A DNA stretch of 64,000 bases from Sphaerochaetaceae bacterium (GTDB lineage: Bacteria > Spirochaetota > Spirochaetia > Sphaerochaetales > Sphaerochaetaceae). Position 1 is the first letter of the stretch, and the number at the start of each line of letters is the position of its first letter. The notes under the pieces are model-generated. The model was not told where the DNA came from. It ran no database searches and saw only the letters and a list, made by a program, of their open reading frames with translations. The stretch covers positions 124-64,123 of the forward strand of contig CAVILL010000001.1 in the NCBI GenBank assembly GCA_963643635.1, read 5' to 3'. Positions 42,681 through 58,728 of the stretch are shown here, one piece after another. Both the position numbers and the translations under genes were made by a program.

Positions 42681-43922
42681 TTATTTCGGGATAACCCGCA
42701 TGAACTTCTTCTTGCCGCTCTTGAGAAGGAACGCTCCGTCGTCGGCATCGGAGAGGGTGTAGACCGTCTTGATGTCCGTCACCTTCTTTCCGTTGACTTC
42801 GGCTCCTCCCTGCGTCACGAGGCGTCGTGCGTCTCCGTTTGAGGATGTGAGACCGCTCTTCGTGAAGAGGTCGAGTACTCCGATTCCGTTCTCGAAGAGG
42901 GACTTCTCGAGTTCGACGGTGGGGAGGTTTGCGCTGCTGCCGCCGCCCTGGAAGAGCGAAAGCGCTGCATCCTTCGCCTTCTCGGCTTCCTCTTCGCCGT
43001 GGATGATCCTGGTTACTTCGTATGCAAGTCTTGCCTTTGCGTCGTTGATGTTCCTCTGCGGATCCTCGTATTCCTTTATCTCGTCGAGGTCCATGAATGT
43101 GAAGAGCTTCATGAACTTGATTGCATCAGCATCCGCAACGTTTCTCCAGTACTGGTAGAAATCGTAGGGTGAGTAGAGGTTCTTATCCAAAAAGACAGCA
43201 CCCTGCTCGCTCTTACCCATCTTCTTGCCGTCAGCACGCATGATGAGATTGAAGGTGAGACCGAAGCACTCCTCTCCTCCCATTCTCTGAATGAGATCGA
43301 TTCCCGCAACGATGTTGCCCCACTGGTCTGCGCCGCCGATCTGGAGGCGTGTTCCGAGTCTCTCGTTGAGCATCTTGTAGTCGTAGGACTGGAGAAGCTG
43401 ATAGTTGAACTCGATGAAGCTCAGGCCCCTCTCGAGTCTCTGCTTGACACCTTCGAAGGTGAGCATGCGGTTGACCGAGAAATACCTGCCGACATCTCTC
43501 AGGAACGAGATGTAATTGAGGTCGACGAGCCAGTCGGCGTTGTTCGCTATCACGGCCTTTCCGTAACCCTCGGGGGGATTCTCGGAGAAGTCGACGACTG
43601 TCGCGAGCTGCTTTGCGATATTCTCCGCATTCCTGTTGATCTCCTCAACCGGGAGAATCTTTCTCATCTCCGTCTTTCCCGACGGGTCTCCGATGAGGCC
43701 CGTACCGCCGCCGACGAGGGCGACGGGTCTGTGACCGTACATCTGGAGGTGGTGCATGGCAAAGAAGGGAACGATGTGTCCCACATGGAGCGAGGGGCCC
43801 GTGGGGTCCGTGCCGCAGTAGAAGGAGACACTTTCCTTATCCATGAGGTCGCTCAGACCGTCGAGGTTTGTGCAGTCCTTCACGAATCCTCTGTCGAATA
43901 ATACCTGGAGGGCCTTGTTCAT
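42681..43922 (-). CDS. tyrS: Tyrosine--tRNA ligase
   Basis: 413 aa. The HIGH region is DPTGPSLHVGHIV and the KMSKS region is KMGKSEQG. It has a C-terminal S4 domain. Confidence 0.95.
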   Translation of the reverse strand: MNKALQVLFDRGFVKDCTNLDGLSDLMDKESVSFYCGTDPTGPSLHVGHIVPFFAMHHLQMYGHRPVALVGGGTGLIGDPSGKTEMRKILPVEEINRNAENIAKQLATVVDFSENPPEGYGKAVIANNADWLVDLNYISFLRDVGRYFSVNRMLTFEGVKQRLERGLSFIEFNYQLLQSYDYKMLNERLGTRLQIGGADQWGNIVAGIDLIQRMGGEECFGLTFNLIMRADGKKMGKSEQGAVFLDKNLYSPYDFYQYWRNVADADAIKFMKLFTFMDLDEIKEYEDPQRNINDAKARLAYEVTRIIHGEEEAEKAKDAALSLFQGGGSSANLPTVELEKSLFENGIGVLDLFTKSGLTSSNGDARRLVTQGGAEVNGKKVTDIKTVYTLSDADDGAFLLKSGKKKFMRVIPK

Positions 43923-45244
43923 ACTCTCTTATACTCCTTCATTCTGTCCTTGATGAAAGAAGCGAGCGAATCTACGGAGACTCTCTCCTGCTTCATGGAG
44001 TCGCGGAAACGTACCGTGACCGTCTGGTCCTCGAGTGTCTGGTAGTCGACCGTGACACAGTACGGAGTTCCGATCTCGTCCTGGCGGCGGTATCTTCTGC
44101 CGACGGCGCCGGACTGGTCATAGTAGGTCGTGAAGTCGTCTCTGAGCGAGTGCTCGAGCTTCTGTGCGTATTCTCCGAGACCGTCCTTCTTGACGAGCGG
44201 GAGAACTGCAACCTTGACCGGTGCGATGACCGGATGGAAGTGGAGAACGGTTCTCGTATCTCCTTCGGGAGTCGGCTCCTCGTCGTAAGCATCGCTGAGT
44301 GCCATGAGGACGTTTCTCGTGAGACCGGCTGATGTCTCGACGACATAGGGGATGTATCTCTCGTTTGTTTCGGGATCGAGGTACGTAAGATCCTTGCCGG
44401 AGAACTTCGTATGCTGTGTGAGGTCGTAGTCCGTTCTGGAGTGCACACCCTCGAGTTCCTGCCAGCCCATCGGGAAGAGGAACTGGATGTCGTATGCGTC
44501 CTTTGCGTAGAATGCGAGCTCGTCCGGTCCGTGCTGGTGCCATCTCAGATGCTCCGGATGGATACCCATCTTGGAGTAGAACTTCATTCTCTCCTCTCTC
44601 CAGTAGGGGAACCATTCCTCGTCGGTACCGGGTCTGCAGAAGAACTGCATCTCCATCTGTTCGAATTCGCAGGAGCGGAAGATGAAGTTCTTGGTTGTGA
44701 TCTCGTTTCTGAAGGACTTACCTACCTGTGCGATTCCGAAGGGAACCTTCACTCTGCTCGACTGGAGGATGTTCTTGTAGTCTACGTAGATTCCCTGTGC
44801 CGTCTCGGGCCTCAGGTAGACAACAGATGCCGCATCCCTGTTGGCACCGATATGTGTCTCGAACATGAGGTTGAAGTTCCTCGGCTCCGTAAAGGAATTT
44901 TTGTTGCCGCATACCGGGCACGGTGCGGTGAGGTCGATCTGGTCGGCGCGGAAACGCGACTTGCAGACCTTGCAGTCGACCATCGGGTCGGTGAAGTTCG
45001 ATACGTGGCCAGATGCCTCCCAGACCCTGGGGTGCATGAGAATGGAAGCGTCGAGGCCGACGATGTTGTCGTGCATTCTCGTCATTTCCTTCCACCAGAA
45101 ATCACGGATGTTGTTCTTGAGTTCCACGCCCATCGGACCGTAGTCGTAGGCACCGTTGAGGCCGCCGTATATTTCGGAGGACTGGAATATGAATCCCCTT
45201 CTCCTGCACAGCGATATGATCTTGTCCATTGTTACTTCAGTCAT
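43919..45244 (-). CDS. glyQS: Glycine--tRNA ligase (homodimeric GlyQS type)
   Basis: 441 aa. It looks class II GlyRS-like along its full length (RGFIFQSSEIYGGL, FRNEITTKNFIFRSCEFEQMEMQFF). Confidence 0.9.
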   Translation of the reverse strand: MTEVTMDKIISLCRRRGFIFQSSEIYGGLNGAYDYGPMGVELKNNIRDFWWKEMTRMHDNIVGLDASILMHPRVWEASGHVSNFTDPMVDCKVCKSRFRADQIDLTAPCPVCGNKNSFTEPRNFNLMFETHIGANRDAASVVYLRPETAQGIYVDYKNILQSSRVKVPFGIAQVGKSFRNEITTKNFIFRSCEFEQMEMQFFCRPGTDEEWFPYWREERMKFYSKMGIHPEHLRWHQHGPDELAFYAKDAYDIQFLFPMGWQELEGVHSRTDYDLTQHTKFSGKDLTYLDPETNERYIPYVVETSAGLTRNVLMALSDAYDEEPTPEGDTRTVLHFHPVIAPVKVAVLPLVKKDGLGEYAQKLEHSLRDDFTTYYDQSGAVGRRYRRQDEIGTPYCVTVDYQTLEDQTVTVRFRDSMKQERVSVDSLASFIKDRMKEYKRV

Positions 45245-45248
45245 TCTA

Positions 45249-46727
45249 TTATTTCTCCTTTAAGAATCTTACAGCTCTCTCGAGTCTCTTCCTGCATTCA
45301 GCGTTGCCGAGGAGTCTTATCGAATCGAAGAGCGGAAGCGATACAGTCGATGCGGTGAGCGCAACGCGGATAGGCTGGAAGACACCGTTGACCTTGATTC
45401 CGAGTTCCCTGCTCAGTGCGCAGAGCTCCTCCTCGATATCCTTCTCGTCCTTTCCGTTCTCGACGCCCGACATGAGGATTCCGGATCCTCTTTCGAGTGC
45501 CTCGAGTGTCTTCTCCTCGTCAGAGCCCTTCGCGACATACACAGCCCTGTCCTCGACGGGCCTGTCCTCGAAGAGGAACCTGGTGAGAGGCACCGAGTCC
45601 GAAAGGGTCTTCATTCTCTCTCTCACGCTCGGCATGAGGGAAAGTATGTATTCCTTCTCCTTTTCCGTCGGCTCGGGAGACACGAATCCCTCCTTCTGGA
45701 AATAGGGCATGCAGAGAGATGCGAGTTCCTCGTTGCTCTTCTGTCTTATATACTGGCCGTTGAACCAGTCGAGCTTTCCGTAGTCGAACTTCGCCGGTGC
45801 GGAATGGATGTTCTCCAGTCTGAAGCACTTCTCGAGGTCCTCCTTCGAGAAGAACTCCGTCTTGTCGTCGAGCGCCCAGCCCACGAGAGTGACGTAGTTG
45901 ATGATCGCTTCGGGAAGGTATCCCTTCTGTCTGAAATCCCTGACGGCAGTCGAGCCGTGGCGCTTGCTGAGCTTCTGGCCGTCCTTTCCCATGACCATCG
46001 GAAGATGGCAGTAGATCGGGGGCTCCCAGCCGAATGCCTCATAGAGAAGAATATGGAGAGGCCCCGAGGGAATCCACTCCTGGGCACGCATGATGTGCGT
46101 GATTCCCATCATATGGTCGTCGATGACGTTTGCAAGATGATATGTCGGGAAACCGTCGCTCTTGAGGAGAATCGGGTCGGGAGAGACATCCCTGTTCTTT
46201 CGTGTTATGTCGCCCATCAGGACGTCGTGGAACGTCGTCTTGCCTTCGGTGGGGACGCGGAGTCTGATTACGGGCTTTATACCCTGTGCCTCGAGCTCCC
46301 TTCTCTCCTCCTCTGTGAGATTGGCACAGTGTCTGTCATAGCCCTGGTACTGGCTCTTGGAGGCAACCTGCTCCTCTCTCAGTTTCTCGAGTCTCTCGGG
46401 AGAGCAGTAGCAGTAGTATGCCTTGCCGTCCCTGACGAGCTTCTCGGCGTATTCCTTGTAGATGTCGAATCTCTCCGACTGTACGTACGGACCGTACGGA
46501 CCGCCGACGACGGGACCTTCATCCCACTTTATTCCGAGCCAGTCGAGTGTGTCGTAGAGGTCCTGCAGGGATTCCTCCGTATACCTCTCGCGGTCGGTAT
46601 CCTCGATGCGGAGAATGAACTTTCCCCCCATGGATTTAGCGAAAAAATAGTTGAACAGGGCGGTTCTTATCCCGCCGATATGCTGCAGCCCAGTTGGAGA
46701 CGGGGCGTAGCGGACACGAACTTCCAT
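45249..46727 (-). CDS. gltX: Glutamate--tRNA ligase
   Basis: 492 aa. It begins VRVRYAPSPTGLQHIGGIRTAL and has the KMSKS-like motif KLSKRHG. Confidence 0.95.
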   Translation of the reverse strand: MEVRVRYAPSPTGLQHIGGIRTALFNYFFAKSMGGKFILRIEDTDRERYTEESLQDLYDTLDWLGIKWDEGPVVGGPYGPYVQSERFDIYKEYAEKLVRDGKAYYCYCSPERLEKLREEQVASKSQYQGYDRHCANLTEEERRELEAQGIKPVIRLRVPTEGKTTFHDVLMGDITRKNRDVSPDPILLKSDGFPTYHLANVIDDHMMGITHIMRAQEWIPSGPLHILLYEAFGWEPPIYCHLPMVMGKDGQKLSKRHGSTAVRDFRQKGYLPEAIINYVTLVGWALDDKTEFFSKEDLEKCFRLENIHSAPAKFDYGKLDWFNGQYIRQKSNEELASLCMPYFQKEGFVSPEPTEKEKEYILSLMPSVRERMKTLSDSVPLTRFLFEDRPVEDRAVYVAKGSDEEKTLEALERGSGILMSGVENGKDEKDIEEELCALSRELGIKVNGVFQPIRVALTASTVSLPLFDSIRLLGNAECRKRLERAVRFLKEK

Positions 46728-46899: not shown

Positions 46900-47508
46900 A
46901 TGAGAAGAAAAATATTCATCAGCAGAACGACGGAAAACAGAGTCCTGAGGCGCATCGACCTCTTCAGAACGAATGTACCTCCTGAGTTCGGAGAGGAACT
47001 GAAATCAATATGCATGTACGACATAGGACTCCCGAACAAAACGATAACCTTCTCCCTGCACACTCCCCCTGTCTTCAGAGAGCTCGGCATGTCTGATTAC
47101 CCCATGATGATGTACCGGGACAAACTTGCAAGGGGACTGTATCTCATAAGTACGGAGGAACACGGACACATGGAGAGTCTGGACAAGAACATAGTCAAGG
47201 AAACTGTTCTCAGGATTGCAGATCCGATTGCGGTATTCGACTCAAAACAGAAAGGCAGGCTCGTTGCCCTTTATGATATTGAGGATCTTCATGGTAATTG
47301 GATTATCGTCAGCATTCTTCCTGATAAAAACCGGAGAGCATCATCTATAAACCTCATAACAAGCATATACGGCAAAGACCGTGATTACGTATTAACAAAA
47401 TGGTGTCTTGACGGCTTACTACGTTATTTTAACGACAAAAAAATGAAGGCGCTGACTGTTAGGCTCCGATTGCCATCAGTGAGTTTCTCCTTCATGCTCT
47501 CAAGATAG
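46900..47508 (+). CDS. Hypothetical protein resembling a PBECR-type module of phage/conjugative-element polyvalent proteins
   Basis: 202-aa ORF with an uncertain start (alternatives M at 47014 or at the MSDYPMMMY methionine). The segments ..EEHGH..VLRIADPIAVFDS...RLVALYDI.D..GNWIIVSILPDKN....INLITSIYGKDRDY...W..DGLLRY recall the PBECR/EndoU-Barnase-like module. Confidence 0.4.
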   Translation: MRRKIFISRTTENRVLRRIDLFRTNVPPEFGEELKSICMYDIGLPNKTITFSLHTPPVFRELGMSDYPMMMYRDKLARGLYLISTEEHGHMESLDKNIVKETVLRIADPIAVFDSKQKGRLVALYDIEDLHGNWIIVSILPDKNRRASSINLITSIYGKDRDYVLTKWCLDGLLRYFNDKKMKALTVRLRLPSVSFSFMLSR

Positions 47509-47611
47509 CCTCCCTCGTCCCAGCTGTCAATGCCGCGGCACAGAAGAATCCCGGTCTGTTTTCCTCACTGAATTGTCTCATTACGACCTTGAACATAAAT
47601 ATTCCGGATTT

Positions 47612-47708
47612 TGAGAATAAATATTCATGATTTTTAAATTTTTATGCATATTTTCTCAGATTTACTTGACAGCATTGCATATTTATCAATAATGAATGCA
47701 AATTTATT
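47612..47708 (+). promoter_or_regulatory. Candidate ARG boxes (ArgR/AhrC-type operators) overlapping the argG promoter
   Basis: The best box is TGAGAATAAATATTCATG (47612-47629), matching 14 of 16 positions of wnTGAATwwwwATTCAnw. Weaker boxes lie at 47643, 47674 and 47691. A TTGACA (47666-71) -16- AATAAT (47688-93) promoter is embedded among them. Confidence 0.5.
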
Positions 47709-47726
47709 TAGAGAGGTATTCATACT

Positions 47727-48947
47727 ATGGATAAGAAAGATATCAAGAAGATCGTTCTCGCATACTCCGGCGGACTCGATACGTCAATAATAATTCCCTG
47801 GCTCAAGGAAAACTACAACAACCCCGAAATCATCGCTGTTGCCGGCAACGTCGGACAGGCTGACGAACTCGAGGGACTCGAGGAGAAGGCACTCAAGACG
47901 GGAGCGAGCAAGCTCATCGTCGCAGACCTCGTCGACGAGATGGTGGACGAGGTGATCATACCCGCCCTCAAGATGGATGCGAAATACGAGACATACCTTC
48001 TCGGTACGGCTTTCGCACGCCCCGTCATCGGCAAGAAGCTTGCCGAGATAGCACTTCAGGAGGGCGCGGACGCAATCTGCCACGGCGCAACCGGAAAGGG
48101 TAACGACCAGGTGAGATTCGAACTTGCAATCAAGCGCTTTGCTCCGGACATGAAGATCATCGCTCCCTGGAGAGAATGGAAGATCAAGTCCCGCGACGAG
48201 GAAATCGACTATGCAGAGGCTCATCATGTTCCTCTCAAGATAAGCAGGGAGACCAACTACTCCAAGGATAAGAACCTCTGGCATCTGAGCCATGAAGGTC
48301 TCGATCTCGAGAACCCGGCAAACGAGCCCGACTACGACAAGCCGGGATTCCTGGAGATGGGAGTTTCTCCGTTCAAGGCACCGGACAAGCCGACCTATGT
48401 CACACTCTCCTTCGAAAAGGGTGCTCCCGTTGCAATCGACGGAGAGAAGATGAAGGCCAGCAAGATTATCGAGAAGCTCAACAAGCTCGGCGGCGAGAAC
48501 GGAATCGGAATCATCGACATCGTCGAGAACAGACTTGTCGGAATGAAGGACAGAGGCGTCTACGAGACCCCCGGCGGAACGATTCTCTACAAGGCTCACG
48601 AACAGCTCGAGATGCTCACGGTTGACAAGGACACACTCCACGAGAAGGAGAAGCTTGCCATCGTAATGGCTGACCAGATCTACAACGGAAAGTGGTACTC
48701 GAGCCTCACGAACTCCCTCATCGCATTTGCGGACGAAGCGAACAAGTACGTAACGGGAGATGTGAAGCTCAAGCTCTACAAGGGAAACATCATCCCCGCG
48801 GGAACGACCAGCCCCTACTCCCTCTACAGCGAGAACCTCGTCACATTCGGCGAAAGCGACTACGACCAGGCGGGTGCAGCGGGATTCATCAACGCATGGG
48901 GACTTCCGACGAAGGTCGAGGCTCTGAGAGAACAGGGAAAGCTCTGA
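47727..48947 (+). CDS. argG: Argininosuccinate synthase
   Basis: 406 aa. The PP-loop-like motif is [13 protein letters not shown], and it also has [12 protein letters not shown]. Confidence 0.95.
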
Positions 48948-48963
48948 TATAGAGGAAAAGAAA

Positions 48964-50337
48964 ATGTCAAAGATGTGGGTCGGCAGAACCGACGGTAATA
49001 CAGATAAACTTGCAGACGTCTTCAATTCATCCATCTCTTTCGATAAGAGGATGTATAAGGAAGACATCACGGGAAGCACGGCCCACGCCCTCATGCTCGC
49101 ATCAAAGGGAATCATCACTCCCGGCGAAGCGGAGAAGATCGTGGAGGGACTCGGAACGATTCTCGACGACATCGAGAGCGGAAAGCTCGAAATCGACGGA
49201 AACGCCGAAGACATCCACATGTTCGTCGAGGAGGAGCTGACGAAGAGAATCGGAGAAGAAGGAAAGAAGCTTCATACCGCCCGGAGCCGCAACGACCAGG
49301 TGGCACTGGATCTCAGGATGTACCTCAGGTCCGCACTCTCAGACGTCTCCTCCCTCGTGAAAGCACTCATCGAGGCACTCACGAAGAGAGCGGAGGAGTA
49401 CGGGGACGCCATAATGCCGGGCTACACGCACCTTCAGCGTGCGCAGCCCGTGACCTTCGGCCACCACCTCCTTGCGTACTCGATGATGCTCCTCAGGGAC
49501 ATGGACAGGATCAAGGCTGCCCTCGCGAGGATGAACGTCTCCCCGATAGGCTGCTGTGCGCTTGCCGGAACGACATACGACACGGACAGGTACTTCGAAG
49601 CGGAGAAGCTCGGATTCGACGGAATATGTCTCAACAGCATGGACGGGGTATCCGACAGGGACTTCGTCGTGGAGACGCTTTCCGTCCTCTCCATCATCAT
49701 GATGCATCTCTCGCGTCTGAGCGAGGAGCTCATCCTCTGGACAAGCTGGGAATTCGGCTTCGTCGAACTCGATGATGCCTACACCACCGGTTCCTCCATA
49801 ATGCCCCAGAAGAAGAACTCGGACATGGCCGAGCTCATCAGGGGAAAGACGGGACGCGTCTACGGAACGCTCATGGCCATGCTGACGACGCTCAAGGGGC
49901 TTCCGCTCGCCTACAACAAGGACATGCAGGAGGACAAGGAAGGCCTCTTCGACGCCCTCGATACCACAGAAATGTGCCTTGAGGTGATGACCGGCATGAT
50001 ATCAACCCTGAAGGCAAGGACGGAGAAGATGAAGGCAGCGGCATCCGGAGGCTTCATAAACGCCACGGACCTTGCGGACTATCTCGTGAGAAAGGGCCTT
50101 CCCTTCCGCTCCGCCTACCGGATATCCGGTGCGATAGTCGCAGAGTGCATCGAAAGGCACCTGGTGCTGGAGACACTTCCGCTCGAGGATTACCGCCGCC
50201 ACTCGGATCTCTTTGAAAGTGATGTCTACGAGGCCGTTGACCTCGAGACATGCGTAAGGAAAAGAATAAGTACCGGGGCTCCCGGAAAGATTCAGGAACA
50301 GATTGACTATATAAGGAAAAAGCTAAATGAAGACTAA
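48964..50337 (+). CDS. argH: Argininosuccinate lyase
   Basis: 457 aa. Motifs are the lyase_1 signature GSSIMPQKKN and TARSRNDQVALD. Confidence 0.95.
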   Translation: MSKMWVGRTDGNTDKLADVFNSSISFDKRMYKEDITGSTAHALMLASKGIITPGEAEKIVEGLGTILDDIESGKLEIDGNAEDIHMFVEEELTKRIGEEGKKLHTARSRNDQVALDLRMYLRSALSDVSSLVKALIEALTKRAEEYGDAIMPGYTHLQRAQPVTFGHHLLAYSMMLLRDMDRIKAALARMNVSPIGCCALAGTTYDTDRYFEAEKLGFDGICLNSMDGVSDRDFVVETLSVLSIIMMHLSRLSEELILWTSWEFGFVELDDAYTTGSSIMPQKKNSDMAELIRGKTGRVYGTLMAMLTTLKGLPLAYNKDMQEDKEGLFDALDTTEMCLEVMTGMISTLKARTEKMKAAASGGFINATDLADYLVRKGLPFRSAYRISGAIVAECIERHLVLETLPLEDYRRHSDLFESDVYEAVDLETCVRKRISTGAPGKIQEQIDYIRKKLNED

Positions 50338-51124
50338 GAAAGCACTCATCATCCTTCTCTCACTCGTTTTGACTGCATCGATGTTCACGTCCTGCTCAAA
50401 GAGCGGAACGACACTTGCCTCCGTTCAGAAGAAGGGAAAGCTCAGCATCGCAACAAGCCCCGACTTCCCGCCGTTTGAATCGCTGACGGACAGCACGACA
50501 GTCGAGGGAATCGAAATAGATATTCTCCAGATCATCTGTGAGAAGCTCGGCGTAAAGCTCGAGATCAACCAGATGGACTTCGACTCCGTCCTCCCCGGCG
50601 TCCAGGCAGGCAAGTTCGATGTCGGTGTCTCGGGAATCACGGTTACCGAGCAGAGAAAGAAGAACGTTCTCTTCACCGATCCCTACTGCCTTGCGGCACA
50701 GGCCATCGTCGTTACCGAGGACAGCTCCATAAAGAGCAAGGCTGACCTCGCAGGAAAGAAGGTCTCCGTACAGACGGGAACTACAGCCGAATCCTACACA
50801 ATGGAGAACGGCTACTCTGTCTCCTCCTTCTCTGCAAACAGTGACGCGGAGGCTGCCCTCACCTCGGGCAAGGTCGATGCATGGGTAATCGACGACCTCA
50901 CGGCAGCGGAGATGGTCAGGGCATACAACGAAACGGCATCGGTCAAGCTCGTCATACTCGACGAAGCAATGACGACAGAGCCCTACGCATTCGCATTCGC
51001 ACTCGGAAGCGACGACCTCGTCAGGGAAGTCAACGGTATTCTCGATACACTGATAGCCGACGGAACAGTCAAGGCGATCTTCGAGAAGTACGACGCTCCG
51101 TACACGAGTCCCGAAAGCAACTGA
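50327..51124 (+). CDS. Polar amino-acid ABC transporter substrate-binding lipoprotein
   Basis: 265 aa. The signal and lipobox are FTSC. The SBP_bac_3 layout shows in SPDFPPFE and VSGITVTEQRKKNVLFTDPY. Confidence 0.85.
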   Translation: MKTKKALIILLSLVLTASMFTSCSKSGTTLASVQKKGKLSIATSPDFPPFESLTDSTTVEGIEIDILQIICEKLGVKLEINQMDFDSVLPGVQAGKFDVGVSGITVTEQRKKNVLFTDPYCLAAQAIVVTEDSSIKSKADLAGKKVSVQTGTTAESYTMENGYSVSSFSANSDAEAALTSGKVDAWVIDDLTAAEMVRAYNETASVKLVILDEAMTTEPYAFAFALGSDDLVREVNGILDTLIADGTVKAIFEKYDAPYTSPESN

Positions 51125-51137
51125 TAAGGAAAAGACT

Positions 51138-51824
51138 TTGACAAACTGGTTCAACAAACTGTATGAAACCTTCATAGAGACCGGCTATTACTCGCTGATG
51201 CTAGAAGGTTTCAAGAATACTCTCATAATCACCGTCGGCGCACTCTTCATAGGAGTCGCCATCGGTACGGTTATAGCCGTCATAAAATATCTTTCGGAAG
51301 ACAACGCTGTACTGAAGGTCATTTCGAAGATTACAGATATCTATGTCACGGCCGTCAGAGGAATACCCGTTGTCGTACTCCTTCTGATCTTCTATTTCAT
51401 AATAATGACCCGTGCGGACGGTATAACGGTGGGAATCCTGACATTCGGAATAAACTCCGGTGCATACATGGCCGAGCTCATCAGAAGCGGCATAAACGCC
51501 GTGAACCCCGGCCAGATGGAGGCGGGACGCAGTCTCGGAATGTCGAGGATGCAGGCGACAAGGAAGATCATACTTCCCCAGGCCCTGAGATACATCCTCC
51601 CCGCCATCGGCAACGAGCTCATAGCACTTCTCAAGGAAACCGCAGTTGCGGGCTATGTCGCGGTGGTGGACCTCACGAGAGCGGGAAACCTCGTAAGGAA
51701 CAACACCTACGATGCAGTCAATCCGCTTCTGATTGTCGCCCTGACCTATCTTGTACTGGTCGTGGGTCTCTCGAAGATTCTCGGAAGACTCGAAAGGAGG
51801 ATGAGACATGCTGAAAGTAAGTAA
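51138..51824 (+). CDS. Polar amino-acid ABC transporter permease
   Basis: 228 aa with a TTG start as tracked. It is HisM/GlnP-like, with the EAA-loop region [22 protein letters not shown]. Confidence 0.85.
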
Positions 51825-52530
51825 CCTCACGAAATCCTTCGATTCACTCGAAGTTCTGAAGGGAATCAACTGCGAAATAAACAAAGGCGATGTCATCTCG
51901 GTAATCGGCCCCTCGGGAAGCGGCAAATCAACATTCCTCAGGTGTCTCAACCTCCTCGAGAAGCCCACCTCGGGCTCGATCAACTTCGAGGGCGACGAGC
52001 TCACCGACAGAAAGACCGACCTCAACAGACACCGCCAGAAGATGGGAATGGTCTTCCAGCAGTTCAACCTCTTCCCGCACATGACGGTTCTCGACAACCT
52101 GACGGTAGCCCCGGTCATGCTGAAGAAGATGACAAAGGAGGAAGCCGAGAAGAAGGGAAAGACACTGCTCAAGCGTGTAGGACTCCTGGAGAAGGCCGAT
52201 GCCTGGCCGGACGAACTCTCGGGGGGACAGAAGCAGAGAGTCGCAATAGTCAGAGCGCTCTGCATGGAACCCGATGTCATGCTCTTCGACGAGCCGACAA
52301 GCGCTCTCGACCCCGAGATGGTCGGAGAGGTACTCGACGTAATGAAGGAACTGGCGGAGACCGGCATGACGATGGTTGTCGTCACACACGAGATGGGCTT
52401 TGCAAGAGAGGTTTCCTCCCGCGTACTCTTTCTCGACGAGGGAGTGATTGCGGAAGAGGGAACACCGGAGGAGATCTTCTCGCACCCGAAGTGCATGAGG
52501 CTGAAGACATTCCTCTCGAAGGTATTATAA
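51808..52530 (+). CDS. Polar amino-acid ABC transporter ATP-binding protein
   Basis: 240 aa. Walker A is GPSGSGKST, the signature is [15 protein letters not shown] and Walker B is [10 protein letters not shown]. Confidence 0.9.
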
Positions 52531-52546
52531 GGAACAAGGTGGAAAT

Positions 52547-53530
52547 ATGAATCTGAAGAACAGAAACTTTCTCAAGCTGCTTGATTACACTCCCGAGGAA
52601 ATACAGGGACTGATCAATCTCGCACTCACTCTCAAGGATGAAAAGAAGAAGGGAATCGCACACGACATGTGCAGGGGGAAGAACATCGCCCTCATCTTCG
52701 AAAAGACATCGACACGGACACGCTGCGCCTTCGAAGTCGCCGCTGCGGATCTCGGAATGCACTCCGTATACCTCGACAGCAAGTCCTCGCAGCTGGGGAA
52801 GAAGGAGTCGATTGCCGACACCGCCAGAGTCCTCGGAAGGATGTTCGACGGAATCGAATACAGAGGCTTCGGCCAGGAGAGAGTCGAAGCTCTCGCGAAG
52901 TATGCCGGAGTCCCTGTCTGGAACGGACTCACGAACGAATTCCATCCCACACAGATTCTCGCCGACTTCATGACGATACAGGAGCATTTCGGCTCCCTCA
53001 GGGGAATAAAGCTCTGCTACATCGGAGACGCGAGGTTCAATATGGGTAACTCCCTCATGGTCGGAAGCGCGAAGATGGGAATGAATTTCACGGCATGCGC
53101 TCCAGAAGGTTACTTCCCCTCCTCATCCCTTACAGAGGAATGCAGGAAGATTGCTTCGGAAACCGGGGCGACTATCACGTTCGAGACCGACCCGATTAAG
53201 GCGACAGAGGGCGCCGACGTCATCTATACGGACGTATGGGTGAGCATGGGAGAGCCGGACGAGGTATGGGCGGAGAGGATAAAGCTCCTCACCCCGTACA
53301 GAGTGACGGAGAAACTGATGAAGAACGCAGGAGAGCAGTGCCGCTTCATGCACTGTCTTCCCGCCTTCCACGATCTCGAGACCGAGACGGGAAGAAGCGT
53401 ATATGAGAAATACGGAATAGACTGCATGGAAGTCGAGGACGCCGTCTTCGAAAGCGGAAAGTCCATCGTATTCGATGAAGCTGAAAACAGAATGCACACA
53501 ATAAAGGCAGTAATGGCTGCAACTCTTTAA
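52547..53530 (+). CDS. argF: Ornithine carbamoyltransferase
   Basis: 327 aa. Motifs are [17 protein letters not shown] and HCLPA. Confidence 0.9.
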
Positions 53531-53550
53531 AGTGTATTTATTTAAGCAGG

Positions 53551-53584
53551 CAGCCCCGTGAGATTCTCCGGGGCTGTCTTTTTT
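53551..53584. terminator. Strong hairpin terminator shared by the arg operon (+) and the convergent ATPase-RloB-LuxR cassette (-)
   Basis: CAGCCCCG (53551-58) pairs with CGGGGCTG (53569-76), followed by TCTTTTTT. It lies between the stops at 53530 (+) and 53606 (-). Confidence 0.75.
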
Positions 53585-53605
53585 CGATGAAAAGTTCAGG
53601 TTACA

Positions 53606-54502
53606 TCACCATGTCGCTTCGTGAAGAACGTTGAGAAGGTCTATTCTCGACTTGACTCCCGTCTTCTGGAATATGTTCGCGATGTGGTTGTTGACGGTGT
53701 TTACGCTGATCTTGAGTTCGAATCCTATTTCCTTGTTGGTCATGCCCTTCTTGATGAGCTTTATGACCTCGAACTCCCTTTCGGTTATTCTGAACTCGGC
53801 AAAGTCCTCGCACTTCGGCTCTCCCGTCCTCGTCTTCTTCCTGCTGTCCTCCTCGGCCTTTTCGATTGCGAGGAACATGAAAACCAGATGCATTATGTAA
53901 TATGCAAGCTCGATTATGCAGAACGAAAGACTTCTCAGATCCTTGAAGACGGCGGAGAGTACAAGAAGCGGAACAGTCGAGAGGCTGATTATCGTAAAGG
54001 TGAATACCGCATGTTTCACGAGCTTGTTCTCGATTGAATTGCGTGAAATCATCATCACGACGAAGCAGTATATGACATTGACTGCGGCAATCAGGGTCTG
54101 CAGGGACTCAAGAAGCGGCACATCAATCACGGTCGTCACGACTGCTGAAGCGCAGTAGCATACGCCGACGGCGAATGTCAGGACGATCTCGAGTTTCGAC
54201 ATCGGACGCGCGACAAGCCAGGTTGCGAAGCGGCAGATGAAGACCACGAGAAAGGATGTGTCTATTATGTAGAACGCATCGAAGACGTAGTTGAGCACAA
54301 GAAGCGGGACTCCCGTGAAGAGGTGCCCCGCAACTATTTTCAATGTATAGAATACCGCCATCCCCAGGAGAGTCGAAGCAAGCACAATGTTCCACTGTAC
54401 CCACTTGTCCCGGTTCTTCTTTGCAAGAATGATTGCAAGCGACAGGTTCATCGATACTATGACGAGAGCCGCCATAGAAACAATAACGGCAGCCTGTGTC
54501 AT
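53606..54502 (-). CDS. Polytopic membrane protein with a C-terminal LuxR/FixJ-type HTH
   Basis: 298 aa. Roughly 7-8 hydrophobic helices span aa 1-225. The HTH is ITEREFEVIKLIKKGMTNKEIGFELKISVNTVNNHIANIFQKTGVKSRIDL. Its ATG shares one base with the upstream gene's TGA. Confidence 0.8.
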   Translation of the reverse strand: MTQAAVIVSMAALVIVSMNLSLAIILAKKNRDKWVQWNIVLASTLLGMAVFYTLKIVAGHLFTGVPLLVLNYVFDAFYIIDTSFLVVFICRFATWLVARPMSKLEIVLTFAVGVCYCASAVVTTVIDVPLLESLQTLIAAVNVIYCFVVMMISRNSIENKLVKHAVFTFTIISLSTVPLLVLSAVFKDLRSLSFCIIELAYYIMHLVFMFLAIEKAEEDSRKKTRTGEPKCEDFAEFRITEREFEVIKLIKKGMTNKEIGFELKISVNTVNNHIANIFQKTGVKSRIDLLNVLHEATW

Positions 54503-55125
54503 CAGAATCTGTTTCTTGCCTGGCTCATGTTCGCCTTGCCGCAGACAGCCTTCATGTCGTCAAAGAAGTCCGAAAGCGTCGTAGCCCTGAAGCCCGTGTC
54601 CATCTCTGCCATGTCGTTGTATGTGCGGGCGTTCTGGTCTGCCACAGCGAGCCTGGGGTAGATCTTGAAGTTGATGTTGAGTCCGTCGGTGAGGAAGTAC
54701 TTCGAGCTCAGTTCGAAGCCCGGGAAGGAAGCCTGAACACGCTTCAGGAGTTCCTCCTTCGTGGAAATCTTTCTCGGAGATGTCTCGAAGAGTGCGAAAT
54801 AGAGCTCGAAGGAAGGAGCGAAGTAAAGCATCTTCACCTTCTTCTTCTCCGCCGTCTCCTCGCTTCTCGCAACGTCCTCGATTGTTGCAGATACGTCATC
54901 GAGACCGAAGACACACCATACGGAAGTATACTTGCCCCTGTTTCTGAGAGCACCTGCCTCCGAGAGGAGCCTGTCGAGATTGTTCGCAGAAGCCTTCTGG
55001 ACGGTGAGGTTGGAATATCTGCAGTCCTTTCTGAGCTGGGAGAAGAAGATGGCTTCAGCCTCCGTAGCACAGAGCATGAGCATCGAGCCCTTTGCTTCGA
55101 CCTTGTTCTTTTTTCTGATGTTCAT
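54502..55125 (-). CDS. RloB-like (Toprim-related, AbiLii-type) protein
   Basis: 207 aa. By my recollection of the RloB consensus, LMLCATEAEAIFFSQL matches ivCEGekTEpnYf, VWCVFGLDD matches vvfDrD, and YFAPSFELYFALFE matches aySNPcFElWlllHf. Its ATG shares one base with the ATPase gene's TAA. Confidence 0.6.
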   Translation of the reverse strand: MNIRKKNKVEAKGSMLMLCATEAEAIFFSQLRKDCRYSNLTVQKASANNLDRLLSEAGALRNRGKYTSVWCVFGLDDVSATIEDVARSEETAEKKKVKMLYFAPSFELYFALFETSPRKISTKEELLKRVQASFPGFELSSKYFLTDGLNINFKIYPRLAVADQNARTYNDMAEMDTGFRATTLSDFFDDMKAVCGKANMSQARNRF

Positions 55126-56369
55126 TATTTTCCCTCCTTGTTCTGGAAGCAGAAGTCGCTTTCGATCGGAAGTGCTCCGAATACACCCTGGAGGTATGCG
55201 TCATAGATGCTTACCTTGCTTCTCACACCTCTGAAGTCGGAGAGTGCGACGAACTCGGTCGAGCTGTCTTCACCCTTCTCGGCGAACCAGACGGAATCCT
55301 TTCTCATGAGACCGTTTTCGAGAAGTGCGGGGTTGCAGTCGACGACGATGAGCTGGCTGAGGGTATCGTTGGCATGGAAGAGCTCGACGATGTGTCTCAG
55401 GACATACGGATGCAATAGCTGTCCGAAATCGTCGATGACGATTACCTTCTCCGAGATGAAAGCCTGGAAGAACGAGACTGCGATGAGTACGAGTCTTCTC
55501 AGGGAGAGCGACTCGTTCATGAATGTCTGGCCGTAAGCCTCGGTTCCCTTCGCGTTGACGAAGCAGTGGCTTATACCGACAGTCTCCATTCCCTTGTCGT
55601 TTCTGATTACCTGGAGGCGGTAGATGTCCGTGACATCGAGTGCCCAGAGGAACGATACAATCTGATCGGACCAGTCGGGATGAGCCTTGAGTGCCTCGAT
55701 GATGACCTTCTCCGCATTCGCACCGTAGCCGAGGGGAAGAACATCGAGCGTATTCTCGAACCAGGAGTAGACCTCGCCAGCCGTCTGGCCGCCCTTGAGA
55801 GCAGCACCCGCGAGGAAGGATCTGTCTTCCTGGAGCTTCGCAGCCTGTCTCTTCTTCTCGCCTCTGTAGTACTTGCCGAAGCGGTATGTGTACGCGCCGT
55901 CCTTATAGAGGCGTTCGAACATTATCTTCTTCGAGCCGTTGATCGTATAGTACAGGGACTCCTCGTAGAAGCGTTCCTGGGTTGCCTTCATCGTATATGT
56001 CGCGATTACGCTCGGCTGGTTCTCGTCACCGCTGACGCCCTTCTCGAGAAGGATGTCCATCGAGATTTCCGACGGCCTCGTCTTTCCGTCTCCGTATGCG
56101 AAGGCAGCCTTCGAAAGATACCTTCTGAGGGGATTCGGTGAATCCTCCGGAGCGAACATTATGCCCTTCACAGCTTCGAGGGCTCTGACGAATGTACTCT
56201 TACCCGCACCGTTGGGGCCGATGATTGCGCTGGATTTGAGAACGTTGAATTTATCTGTTCCCTCGATTGTCTTGGATAAGTCCAGTCTCTTGTCGCCGAG
56301 TGCGACGAAAGAAATAGTCTGGGGATCCTTCACAGACTTGTAGTTTGCAAGTGTCATTGACAGCAGCAT
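55125..56369 (-). CDS. AAA_21/ABC-like ATPase (AbiLi/RloA-type partner)
   Basis: 414 aa. The P-loop is IIGPNGAGKSTFVRALE. The C-terminal block is ESLSLRRLVLIA...VIVIDDFGQLLHPYVL...QLIVVDCNPALL. A GGAGG RBS precedes the start. Confidence 0.75.
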   Translation of the reverse strand: MLLSMTLANYKSVKDPQTISFVALGDKRLDLSKTIEGTDKFNVLKSSAIIGPNGAGKSTFVRALEAVKGIMFAPEDSPNPLRRYLSKAAFAYGDGKTRPSEISMDILLEKGVSGDENQPSVIATYTMKATQERFYEESLYYTINGSKKIMFERLYKDGAYTYRFGKYYRGEKKRQAAKLQEDRSFLAGAALKGGQTAGEVYSWFENTLDVLPLGYGANAEKVIIEALKAHPDWSDQIVSFLWALDVTDIYRLQVIRNDKGMETVGISHCFVNAKGTEAYGQTFMNESLSLRRLVLIAVSFFQAFISEKVIVIDDFGQLLHPYVLRHIVELFHANDTLSQLIVVDCNPALLENGLMRKDSVWFAEKGEDSSTEFVALSDFRGVRSKVSIYDAYLQGVFGALPIESDFCFQNKEGK

Positions 56370-56393
56370 GGTCTTTCCTCCATTTACCTATGA

Positions 56394-56421
56394 ATAATAC
56401 CAGAACTCCCGGAAAATGCAA
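56394..56421 (-). promoter_or_regulatory. Sigma70-like promoter for the ATPase-RloB-LuxR cassette
   Basis: The minus strand reads TTGCAT-16 nt-TATTAT, about 25 nt upstream of the ATG, inside a 228-bp AT-rich spacer. Confidence 0.4.
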
Positions 56422-56597
56422 AAACCGGCGGGAACGGCACAAGAGAGACAAATGATGTCCCGTACATAAAGAAATAAATACCCGGAAATGAATGCTTTTT
56501 AAGCAGTAAACTTCATTTTTAGTATGTTAAATCTTATTTACAGAACATCAATACCAAAATATTTCAGATTTTTACTTAACAAATATTAAGCACTTCT

Positions 56598-57701
56598 TCA
56601 GAAGAGATAGCTGTACGGAGAAACCGCCTCCGTCGCAGTCGAGTCGCTCTTGGGTTCGTACTGTTTCTTCGCTTCCTCGTTCTTCGCCTTCAGGGCCGTG
56701 AGGCGCGAGTAGAATCTGTCGACCTCCCTGTCATCCAGACCGTTCGAACGTATTTCGCCGAGAATCTCCAGGGCTCCCTCGTAGTCGCTGCGGGACGCAA
56801 GGATGAGCGCGGCATTGTAGCCGGAAGGCACATGCCGGGAATTCTCCCATGCATTCCTGAAGAGTTCGAGGGCGTAGTCGAAGTTGTCGTTCTTCGCAGC
56901 CTTGTAGGCCTCCTCCACGCTCTCGTTCTTCGGACTGTTGTCCTTGAAGGTGACCTCGGCATATCTTCTCGTCGGGATGAAGTCTTCGATTATCCCGCTT
57001 ATCTTGTCGGAGAGCGCTCTCTGTACGAGCTCCTGCTCGGAAAGAATCGATTTGAAGTAGTAGTACCTGGGGTCGAAGGACTCGTGGGACACGGCGGAAG
57101 TACTGTATTCCTTTATTGCGACGATTCTGTTCGTGGCAGTGTCGAGAACGGTGAGGGTGAACGAGATATCGACAGTTCTGTAGAGAGTATATACAACCTT
57201 CTCCGTTCCCCTGCTGTCCTTCACGATATCCATATCGATGTATTCGTCGCTTCTGAGAGATGTGATTCTCGGAACGATGAGCGCATCTACTCCGTCAGCC
57301 TTCAGCATTTCGGAAGGGTCACGGCCGATCTTATAGAGGGAGATGTATGTATCTGTCTTGTCTCTCGAGAGTGTTGAATAGTATGAGGATGAAGCAAAGA
57401 CCTTCTCCACCATTCTCGAGAGCTCGCCTGCCGTCGTGGAATTGACGGAGTCATAGCTGTACGAAGTGGCGTAATTGTAGATGACGAACCTCGAATCACC
57501 GTAGAAGTCGTCTATGTATCTTATGAAGCGCGGAAGGCTCTGATAGCCGTCATATTTCGATGCCGATGCGACCGCCACGGAGCGGTACTGACTCATGTTT
57601 ATGTTGCTCGGCTGCGTATAGGGAATGCTGAGACTCGTCTGGCATGACGCACATAAAACAATCACTGCCAGGAGTAATGTAATCAGAATGTTTCTTCTCA
57701 T
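56598..57701 (-). CDS. Lipoprotein with a TPR-like C-terminal region
   Basis: 367 aa. The signal and lipobox are VLCASC. The C-terminal helical repeats include YKAAKNDNFDYALELFRNAWE...YNAALILASRSDYEGALEIL. Confidence 0.7.
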   Translation of the reverse strand: MRRNILITLLLAVIVLCASCQTSLSIPYTQPSNINMSQYRSVAVASASKYDGYQSLPRFIRYIDDFYGDSRFVIYNYATSYSYDSVNSTTAGELSRMVEKVFASSSYYSTLSRDKTDTYISLYKIGRDPSEMLKADGVDALIVPRITSLRSDEYIDMDIVKDSRGTEKVVYTLYRTVDISFTLTVLDTATNRIVAIKEYSTSAVSHESFDPRYYYFKSILSEQELVQRALSDKISGIIEDFIPTRRYAEVTFKDNSPKNESVEEAYKAAKNDNFDYALELFRNAWENSRHVPSGYNAALILASRSDYEGALEILGEIRSNGLDDREVDRFYSRLTALKAKNEEAKKQYEPKSDSTATEAVSPYSYLF

Positions 57702-57775
57702 AATCTGTCCTTTCAGTCAGTATACAGAAAAGAAGTCAGCCGAGAAAGATGCGCGTCCTCCCCTTCAGCATCGAC

Positions 57776-57799
57776 AAAAAACCGGAGGTTTCCCTCCAG
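57776..57799 (-). terminator. Putative intrinsic terminator on the minus strand
   Basis: The minus strand reads CTGGAGG-GAAA-CCTCCGG followed by TTTTTT. It lies about 300 nt downstream of the DUF3800-like ORF. Confidence 0.45.
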
Positions 57800-58095
57800 T
57801 TTTGGCGGACCATATGTCCAGCCCATGAGACAGCCCTCCATTAACGGTCGGGCCTTTTTACTTAAGCAATAATTTTGTCCCATAACCACATTTTTAAAGC
57901 AACACTAAATTTAAATTCATCAATACTTCAGACGTAATCTTTTCTTCTCAACCATCAGCTTTCCAAAATCTTTTCCATCTACTTCTTTAAGACGAATCCG
58001 CTTAAATCTCCTTTCACCTCCCAGACACAGCATTTCGCCCCTTGAGAGATTGCCCCTATCAAACTTTATTCGACGAAGAAGGCGAAGGTGCAGCC

Positions 58096-58728
58096 TCAAA
58101 GCTGAGGGGTCAATACCCTGCGGCTTGCTGCGGCTGAGTCCGTAAACCCATAGCGGTTTTCCAGAAGACGACAGCTAAGTCGTATGCTGCGGAAGACCAT
58201 CGACTTTTGTAAGAAATAACTCAGGTTCACCTTTATGAATCCGACGATTTCATTTACAGGGAACCGCTGCACATCCTCTTTTGTCTTGTTTTTTCTTTTT
58301 ACGGAAAACTCAACATGCGACACATCAAGATGATTGAAGAAAGACGAAAAGTACATCAGAAGCTTCTTCCTGTTCTCAAGGGACTCCCCTTCGTATTCGT
58401 CCTTGCCGTGAATGGGCGGCCCGGTATGGAAGCAGTGACGGGGATAACCCAGGCGTGAGAACTCCTCCTCAAGCTTCTCCTCTTCTTCCTCTGTACTGAC
58501 ACAGCTTTCCCTGAGAACGAAACACATGATGTACCATGCCGATGAGGATGCACGGCTGTCGGGATTCCCCGATTCGTCGATATGTATGTCAAGTTCCCGC
58601 TCTTCTCCGAAGGCGTACTTCGCCTCGCAGAGTTCATCGACTCTGCTCTCGCGGATTACCGCCTCGCAAATGCTGCCGATTCCGTCCACATCGGCCTCCA
58701 CTGCGTCACATATATATCTGTATGGCAC
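58096..58728 (-). CDS. DUF3800-like protein
   Basis: 210-aa ORF. It has LDIHIDESGN (the DESG motif), HCFHTGPPIHGKDEYEG and RKKLLMYFSSFFNHL. Both the N-terminal 45 aa and the C-terminal 35 aa look atypical. Confidence 0.5.
   Translation of the reverse strand: MPYRYICDAVEADVDGIGSICEAVIRESRVDELCEAKYAFGEERELDIHIDESGNPDSRASSSAWYIMCFVLRESCVSTEEEEEKLEEEFSRLGYPRHCFHTGPPIHGKDEYEGESLENRKKLLMYFSSFFNHLDVSHVEFSVKRKNKTKEDVQRFPVNEIVGFIKVNLSYFLQKSMVFRSIRLSCRLLENRYGFTDSAAASRRVLTPQL

Follow-up and report, generated by a model that had tools for sequence, protein, structure and literature searches.

The OLD, Gabija, PARIS and AbiL modules combine an ATPase with a Toprim protein and have been studied as anti-phage nucleases. 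AbiL is a two-component system of unknown mechanism that is grouped with PARIS as an ATP-binding cassette (ABC) ATPase plus Toprim module (PMC13064643, PMC11464382). ATPases of the AAA_15/21 type recur as sensors of infection, with a range of effectors attached to them (PMC11464382), and RloB domains normally retain the Toprim Glu and the DxD motif (PMC12065111). Cran1, an archaeal OLD-family ATPase-nickase, is essential and has a role in the cell cycle (PMC12796447). Here we describe a three-gene cassette in a 64,000-nucleotide stretch of a Sphaerochaetaceae bacterium genome (assembly GCA_963643635.1, contig CAVILL010000001.1, positions 124 to 64,123), hereafter the window. In this cassette, genes for an AbiL-like ATPase (g1) and an RloB-family protein (g2) are followed by a gene for a membrane-embedded protein with a LuxR-type helix-turn-helix (HTH) domain (g3). 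The computational evidence is strong that the cassette represents a fixed, catalytically altered and regulator-coupled derivative of AbiL-like modules.

The three genes are read from the minus strand (Table 1). The g1/g2 junction is TAATG and the g2/g3 junction is TGATG, so that one base is common to each stop codon and the following ATG. A first-pass annotation of the sequence had given exactly these coordinates and single-nucleotide overlaps, and the trio does read as a single operon, as it had proposed. The GC content of the cassette (0.52) equals that of the window (0.519), and the 228-bp spacer upstream of it is AT-rich (GC 0.333). We ruled out an origin of the cassette as a recent island because of this match in GC content and its conserved synteny.

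The domains assigned by the first-pass annotation all scored above Pfam gathering thresholds: AAA_21 in g1 (50.4 bits, E = 4.5e-13, cut-off 27), RloB (PF13707) in g2 (42.8 bits, E = 8.9e-11, cut-off 31.5), and GerE in g3 (58.5 bits, E = 5e-16, cut-off 23.5; residues 240-290, at 53633-53785). Among PADLOC models, AbiLi was the strongest profile match of g1 (5.8e-58), with weaker matches to AriA models (6.3e-13). The match of g2 to AbiLii was weak and partial (8.3e-5, 21 bits), covering profile positions 22-74 of 170, or about one third. In hhalign comparisons, the g1 family aligned with plasmid ATPases that are paired with RloB (probability 100%, E = 6.6e-45, residues 1-404), and the g2 family aligned with four annotated plasmid RloB proteins (probability 99.1%, E = 7.9e-19). 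Neither g1 nor g2 matched a solved structure by sequence search. The AlphaFold model of g2, with a mean predicted local distance difference test (pLDDT) score of 89 and a predicted template modelling (pTM) score of 0.85, consists of a four-stranded parallel sheet flanked by helices.

We sampled the neighbourhoods of related genes in four ways: look-ups of g3 homologues, a g3-profile scan of species-representative genomes (the best 80 of 438 relatives were examined), a scan of metagenome contigs seeded with the most distant g3-like proteins (80 further loci), and look-ups of g2 homologues. Genes of these loci were assigned by iterative profile searches on all open reading frames (ORFs). The sampled relatives belong to Sphaerochaetaceae, Sphaerochaeta, Ca. 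Ornithospirochaeta, Bullifex and uncultured Spirochaetales, and the carriers are Sphaerochaeta-group spirochaetes of gut and sediment. Each of the g3 homologues found by look-up, at 75, 66, 52, 43 and 40% identity, lay within a trio of ATPase, RloB and seven-transmembrane (7-TM) LuxR genes. Overall, 131 distinct loci had 2.1 kb or more of sequence upstream of g3; in 129 of them, g1 and g2 were found directly 5' of g3, in the same strand and order, and sampling by g2 gave the same linkage. The membrane LuxR gene thus remains beside the ATPase and RloB genes in other genomes, and the prediction that the third gene is attached to the pair holds. The distance from the g1 stop to the g2 start was -14 to +2 nucleotides (nt) in 125 of these 129 loci, and that from the g2 stop to the g3 start was -8 to +9 nt in 112. 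The trio also persists despite altered flanks in the window and in locus L182.

Only one locus within the clade has g3 without the pair. In L093 (6263-8879, from one metagenome-assembled genome), the order is lipoprotein, cobO-like, g3 and gltX, and the cpsB-like, g1, g2 and hydrolase genes are missing; this arrangement may have arisen by natural deletion or by faulty assembly. In a metagenome contig, L004 (1320-2659), the ATPase gene is split into ORFs of 299 and 157 amino acids (aa) with g2 and g3 intact, through either a frameshift that created a pseudogene or a sequencing error. Several bins of the 'cleanbin' series (L015-L094) have titles such as Faecalibacterium, Lachnospiraceae, Segatella copri, Phocaeicola and Eggerthellaceae, yet their block is of the spirochaete type and keeps the same gene order; these bins are probably mislabelled or contaminated.

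The trio is embedded in a larger block that usually runs along one strand. Upstream, the order is a pdxA-like gene, a lipoprotein gene, a cobO-like gene (CobA_CobO_BtuR) and a gene for a cpsB-like PHP phosphoesterase, followed by g1; from g3 onward, it is an α/β hydrolase gene (Hydrolase_4/Abhydrolase_6), gltX, a tRNA-synt_2b gene and a tRNA-synt_1b gene. The pdxA-like, cobO-like, cpsB-like and hydrolase genes have been lost repeatedly in lineages that kept g1-g2-g3, and for this reason we rejected the idea that the first three contribute to the function of the unit. In a comparison of 52 distinct loci, the pairwise identities of all three trio genes followed those of gltX (Spearman correlations of 0.79 for g1, 0.76 for g2 and 0.76 for g3) and one another (0.81-0.88), with mean identities of 0.58 for g1, 0.45 for g2, 0.42 for g3 and 0.72 for gltX. 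Relatives of g2 were found neither in the plasmid collection (tblastn) nor in viral contigs (g2-profile scan). Instead of the patchy spread of a mobile two-gene module, we observed a trio that is fixed, syntenic with housekeeping genes and co-diverging with gltX. Judged by these comparisons, the Sphaerochaeta group has inherited the trio vertically as a core cluster, and it is no mobile defence island.

Residues expected at the catalytic centers of both proteins have been replaced. The Walker A motif of g1, GPNGAGKS, is intact and invariant in orthologues. Its Walker B motif reads IDDFG, with D313-D314 in all 124 distinct orthologues where plasmid homologues have D-E, and D344-C345 replaces the T-H of the H-loop (C345 in 123 of 124). 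Hence, the canonical combination of Walker-B Glu and H-loop His is absent from the g1 family. In g2, the position of the Toprim Glu (canonical 'EG', after strand 1, with DxD after strand 3) is occupied by A20, and none of 137 sequences has an acidic residue there (106 A, 27 S, 2 T, 1 V and 1 Q). The first Asp of DxD corresponds to G74 (105 G, 17 S, 8 T and 7 D), with the proviso that g2 aligns with canonical RloB at about 18% identity and the register is somewhat uncertain. As a family, g2 therefore departs from the Toprim Glu plus DxD signature. Where canonical proteins have the Glu of a 'CFE' motif, only 56 of the 137 orthologues have E or D, and the alignment shows that different acidic residues were lost in different deep g2 lineages. 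Sphaerochaeta-type g2 proteins have 'SNAAIA' or 'SNPALA' after strand 1, and others have 'STKKM' or 'STQAM' after strand 3.

The g2 family has also acquired invariant motifs specific to its clade: RKDCRY (32-37), Y169-N170 and a C-terminal CGxADMSH, alternatively written as C195-G-x-A-D/N-M-S, which is missing from canonical RloB. Cysteines are nearly invariant at three positions, namely C35 (133/137) and C195 (136/137) of g2 and C345 of g1 (123/124). Beside those of g2, D34 is invariant and a His occurs at position 202 in 112 of 137 sequences. From this pattern of conservation, the clade-specific cysteines, with D34 and His 202, might form a metal or redox site in place of the lost catalytic center.

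The third protein, g3, combines a membrane domain (residues 1-226, approximately 53825-54502) with a C-terminal HTH. Its AlphaFold model (pLDDT 80) has seven transmembrane helices of 24-40 residues (2-27, 33-61, 65-96, 103-126, 129-156, 160-185 and 187-226) followed by a four-helix HTH. Hydropathy peaks agree with seven helices, the lower number of the earlier estimate of seven to eight. A predicted N-out/C-in topology fits the basic loops at 28-33, 97-103 and 154-163. Using Foldseek, the C-terminus aligned with the DNA-binding domains of GerE, NarL and LiaR at a root-mean-square deviation of ~1 Å, and the membrane domain returned nothing informative, only generic 7-TM bundles such as G-protein-coupled receptors and rhodopsins (TM-score ~0.4). 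The 7-TM domain matches no Pfam family. When its profile was searched against 1.84 billion representative proteins, there were 57 matches at E ≤ 1e-3, almost all of them proteins of ~290-310 aa with the same 7-TM plus LuxR layout or fragments thereof. The recognition helix, ISVNTVNNHIANIF, is invariant among homologues. The NCBIfam model EpsA aligns with residues 173-287 at a score below its cut-off.

Regulators of this type also exist outside the trio. On a neighbor-joining tree, trio-linked g3 proteins form one clade, and the proteins of L100, L149, L179, L180 and L181 fall outside it. No ATPase or RloB genes were found beside these five outgroup genes in the available flanks, although for L149 this is weak evidence as only ~0.8 kb was available upstream. 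The pair was likewise not found in the available flanks of one JGI contig with an outgroup 7-TM LuxR gene. The L100 gene adjoins a GH32-like gene and UvrC, and the L179 gene is on a 4.3-Mb contig. Both L179 and L181 have a hydrolase homologous to that of the trio cluster (phmmer E-values of 6e-49 and 1e-47), and their regulators are near NTP-transferase, Wzz/BY-kinase and CpsB genes. About two in three trio loci have the hydrolase gene (~285 aa) overlapping g3 at its 3' end; only a 124-aa ORF occupies its position in L001-L004.

The occurrence of the regulator with the hydrolase and without the pair suggests that the regulator was there first and that the ATPase/RloB pair arrived later. The α/β hydrolase is probably the regulator's original partner, and comparison of the loci indicates that the pair was probably inserted 5' of a regulator-hydrolase unit that predates it, and was fixed thereafter. 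In its simplest form, this history would have begun with an ancestral 7-TM LuxR and hydrolase pair in an envelope or exopolysaccharide (EPS)-type neighborhood. An AbiL-like pair would then have entered immediately 5' of the regulator in the common ancestor of Sphaerochaeta-group spirochaetes and become fixed, and the lineage of the window would later have lost the cpsB-like, cobO-like and hydrolase genes.

How might the three proteins work together? The interpretation we favor, with confidence falling somewhat short of even, is that an exapted AbiL-like nucleotide switch controls a membrane-tethered regulator, making the cassette a signalling device as opposed to a nuclease-based abortive infection system. 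Under this model, g1 would bind nucleotide through its intact Walker A motif and hydrolyze it slowly or not at all, behaving as a nucleotide-dependent switch. The g2 protein would serve as an adaptor with a Toprim scaffold and no nuclease activity, and g1 and g2 would form a complex that binds and gates g3. The 7-TM domain of g3 would sense a membrane or extracellular cue, and its HTH would provide the transcriptional output, probably to envelope or exopolysaccharide-type genes and possibly to the operon's own upstream boxes. We propose more tentatively that a defence-type pair was domesticated family-wide, lost its nuclease chemistry, and became the cytoplasmic sensing or gating module of a previously undescribed 7-TM LuxR regulator.

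Several observations weigh against the switch model. Among the weightiest, the g2 protein of the window has acidic residues (E22, E24, D76, D77 and E107) at most two residues from canonical positions, and their equivalents are all kept in 43 of 137 orthologues, this one included. These nearby residues could rebuild a metal site, and nuclease activity may persist in this lineage. An Asp in place of the Walker-B Glu need not abolish ATP hydrolysis. Foldseek searches with the g2 model gave no significant match in the PDB (best E = 5.7e-3, to lumazine synthase) and otherwise generic Rossmann-like folds, so that the Toprim assignment rests on profiles and not on structure search. The linkage of the pair with g3 could reflect shared transcription only. 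Finally, outgroup genomes have g3 but not the pair, and the same is apparently true of L093, which implies that the pair is dispensable for basic regulator function.

The foremost alternative is that the cassette is a genuine AbiL-type abortive infection system that became a fixed core defence, in which the ATPase senses infection. The response would then come from nuclease activity left in g2, or else from g3 as a membrane effector or a transcription switch specific to defence. This would accord with AbiLi being the strongest match of g1, with g2 exceeding the Pfam threshold for RloB, with the recurrent use of AAA_15/21 ATPases as infection sensors (PMC11464382), with the acidic residues near active-site positions in the window's g2, and with a tight three-gene coupling typical of defence operons. 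However, the Toprim Glu is absent from 137 of 137 sequences and the first DxD Asp from 130 of 137, about 69% of g2 orthologues are missing one or more of the nearby acidic residues in operons that are still intact, and g1 has other residues in place of the Walker-B Glu and the H-loop His across the family. Descent has been vertical and syntenic beside aminoacyl-tRNA synthetase genes, with no patchiness across ~130 loci, and the searches of plasmids and viral contigs yielded no g2 relatives. The invariant recognition helix further argues that the role of g3 is DNA binding rather than pore formation. Hence, we consider active defence unlikely, though not so unlikely as the explanations below.

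More doubtful still is the explanation that g3 is an independent regulator partnered with the hydrolase and with envelope or EPS genes, and that its linkage to the ATPase/RloB pair is historical, with the transcript merely shared. Outgroup homologues that lack the pair and keep the hydrolase as a neighbor point in this direction, as does L093, which retains g3 after loss of cpsB-g1-g2. Moreover, the whole region is frozen, and the unrelated pdxA-like, cobO-like and gltX genes are conserved neighbors as well. Yet accessory genes of the block were repeatedly lost where the trio stayed together in 129 of 131 loci, and the trio outlasted changes to its flanks in the window and in L182. Overlaps or gaps of a few nucleotides were maintained at both junctions, and identities within the trio correlate more strongly with each other (0.81-0.88) than with gltX (0.76-0.79). 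A role of the pair in handling DNA (chromosome or replicon) at the membrane, with g3 as a membrane/DNA anchor and no regulator, has a precedent in the essential ATPase-nickase Cran1 of archaeal cell-cycle progression (PMC12796447) and would suit both the core-gene-like conservation of the trio and the joining of a membrane anchor to a sequence-specific DNA-binding domain in g3, but it is very improbable given that the residues needed for nicking are not conserved, outgroup g3 proteins resemble ordinary regulators beside EPS-type genes, and no replication or partition genes are linked in the block.

We also considered how the operon might be expressed. The first-pass annotation had placed a sigma70-like promoter and a GGAGG ribosome-binding site in the 228-bp spacer; a candidate promoter and the GGAGG are present there, and the -10 element, as TGnTAT(T/A)AT, and GGAGG are kept in relatives. 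A single sigma70-like match is not above chance in this window. Three conserved blocks lie 5' of the promoter (Table 1). Two are boxes, AATGATGTTCC and GGGACATCATT, that are mutual reverse complements ~90 nt apart, and the third is a 16-nt palindrome, the only such one in the window versus 0.18 expected. Their conservation suggests that the three blocks could be operator sites or an RNA stem of a read-through transcript, and the palindrome may be an operator or a weak terminator. No RNA family was found by Rfam in 53300-57800, nor a riboswitch in the spacer. The conserved box matched elsewhere in the window 4 times versus 2.6 expected; as there is no enrichment, we infer no regulon.

The strong hairpin downstream of g3, earlier taken to close the unit, is real, although its T-run is on the plus strand and an A-run is ahead of the hairpin. 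This implies it is primarily the terminator of the convergent argF-like gene, and at best a bidirectional one, rather than belonging mainly to the cassette. Other hairpins precede g1 in relatives. Sphaerochaeta-type loci with a preceding cpsB-like gene (e.g., L074-L094) have a GC hairpin, GCCGnnnnCGGC, and then AAAGGAGGCCTTT right before the g1 start, and in Ornithospirochaeta-type loci this position is taken by another hairpin, GATGGG...CCCATC. Based on their position, these hairpins could be processing or translational-control elements.

The window contains a reduced version of the block, comprising the lipoprotein gene, the spacer with its own promoter, and g1-g2-g3; the α/β hydrolase is gone. 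Its gltX/tRNA-synt_2b/tRNA-synt_1b genes are 7 kb from the cassette, separated from g3 by plus-strand genes for arginine biosynthesis and amino-acid ABC transporters. The lipoprotein has only sub-threshold TPR matches in Pfam, and its gene has the same upstream position and strand in most related loci. A 210-aa ORF located 5' of the lipoprotein gene scored 20.8 bits for DUF3800 (Pfam cut-off 21), and the block as conserved in relatives contains nothing equivalent to it.

Table 1. Positions of the cassette, its control elements and its neighbors in the window, and of the hydrolase gene in three related loci.
Feature	Sequence	Positions	Strand	Length	Description
g1	window	55125-56369	-	414 aa	AAA_21/AbiLi-family ABC-type ATPase
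g2	window	54502-55125	-	207 aa	RloB-family (Toprim-derived) protein
g3	window	53606-54502	-	298 aa	7-TM domain + LuxR/GerE HTH
g1 C345 codon	window	55335-55337			conserved cysteine
g2 C35 and C195 codons	window	54541-54543 and 55021-55023			conserved cysteines
Ribosome-binding site	window	56377-56381	-		GGAGG, 7 nt before g1 ATG; invariant in aligned relatives
Candidate promoter	window	56394-56422	-		-35 TTTGCA, 17-nt spacer, extended -10 TGgTATTAT; sole sigma70-like match in 53300-56800
Box GGGACATCATTTG	window	56449-56461	-		upstream of promoter; near-invariant in 11 aligned spacers, exact in window
Box (A)ATGATGTTC(C)	window	56541-56552	-		window version ATTGATGTTCTG; core TGATGTTC invariant; alignment columns 59-70
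Palindrome CTTAATATTTGTTAAG	window	56575-56590		16 nt	just past lipoprotein gene; kept in 11/11 aligned spacers
Lipoprotein gene	window	56598-57701	-	367 aa	upstream neighbor in syntenic block; weak TPR-like matches
ORF 5' of lipoprotein gene	window	58096-58728	-	210 aa	near-threshold DUF3800 score
GC-rich hairpin	window	53551-53584			between convergent g3 and argF-like gene; z ~-3.7 (- strand), ~-4.0 (+ strand)
argF-like gene	window	52547-53530	+		convergent with g3
Arginine-biosynthesis and amino-acid ABC-transporter genes	window	~46900-53530	+		between g3 and gltX block
gltX/tRNA-synt_2b/tRNA-synt_1b	window	42681-46727	-		aminoacyl-tRNA synthetase block
α/β hydrolase gene	L108	7861-8718
α/β hydrolase gene	L179	5968-6729
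α/β hydrolase gene	L181	7199-7996

If the switch model is correct, ATPase plus Toprim modules can be exapted for bacterial signalling, as Cran1 suggests for archaea, and the cassette would be the first example from bacteria of a defence module of this type turned into a core signal-transduction pathway. A derivative of this kind would surprise specialists in defence systems. Automated tools would probably call such loci 'AbiL', which is a warning against counting them as defence. The cassette also defines a new 7-TM sensor domain of narrow distribution that offers a clear genetic handle, with cultivable relatives in Sphaerochaeta and Bullifex, and the natural versions of the regulator with and without the pair make the partnership directly testable. 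We found no literature linking RloB or AbiL with a LuxR-type membrane protein, the sole co-occurrence being an unrelated Citrobacter genomics paper, and no described regulator of the g3 type with a fixed place in one operon with an ATPase/RloB pair.

Comparison with known systems places the cassette near AbiL in family and apart from it in three defining features. Searching plasmids with g1 returned 164 records at ~25% identity over the full length. In the four loci inspected, from Clostridium estertheticum, Persicobacter psychrovividus, a 3.7-kb mobilizable E. coli plasmid and Clostridium beijerinckii, the gene for an 'ATP-binding protein' overlaps a gene for an 'RloB family protein' that comes after it, with nothing resembling g3, consistent with the earlier statement that canonical ATPase/RloB modules comprise two genes without such a third. 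The pair of P. psychrovividus adjoins AbiEi and Cas9. Lactococcus AbiL, Campylobacter RloA/RloB and these plasmid pairs share with our locus an AAA_21/AAA_15 ATPase gene followed by an overlapping RloB-family gene. In contrast, they are two-gene units of plasmids or defence islands in which the Walker-B Glu, the H-loop His, the Toprim Glu and the DxD motif are all present, whereas here these residues are replaced and a 7-TM LuxR gene is fixed as a third member of a chromosomal, vertically inherited unit. Because both proteins lack canonical catalytic residues, the name of an AbiL defence module is not justified: the first-pass annotation was right about membership in the AbiLi and RloB families, and its closing suggestion, that a module of the defence type became a signalling device, is the one that the evidence favors. 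Lacking also two-gene autonomy and a mobile, patchy spread, the locus is not filed as an AbiL system.

PARIS (AriA/AriB) and OLD-like systems share the underlying logic of an ABC ATPase as sensor or scaffold with a Toprim partner. The partner in PARIS is DUF4435 (AriB), whereas that of the cassette is RloB-type with an active site that is not conserved and no indicated anti-phage role. Neither AriB nor DUF4435 matched g2 in Pfam or PADLOC, and g1 is far closer to AbiLi than to AriA (5.8e-58 versus 6.3e-13), so the locus is not a PARIS system. Transmembrane transcription regulators are common in Spirochaetota (PMC10269533). Like transmembrane one-component regulators and the EpsA/CsgD-type LuxR regulators of EPS and biofilm, g3 joins transmembrane helices to a cytoplasmic DNA-binding domain; it differs from them in a 7-TM domain that has no Pfam family, few relatives and a single architecture. 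A parallel in use is Cran1, which like the trio belongs to a defence-associated ATPase/Toprim superfamily, is conserved as a core gene and apparently has no use in defence. Cran1 is a single fused protein with active nickase and ATPase, whereas the cassette has two proteins with altered residues that are tied to a membrane regulator.

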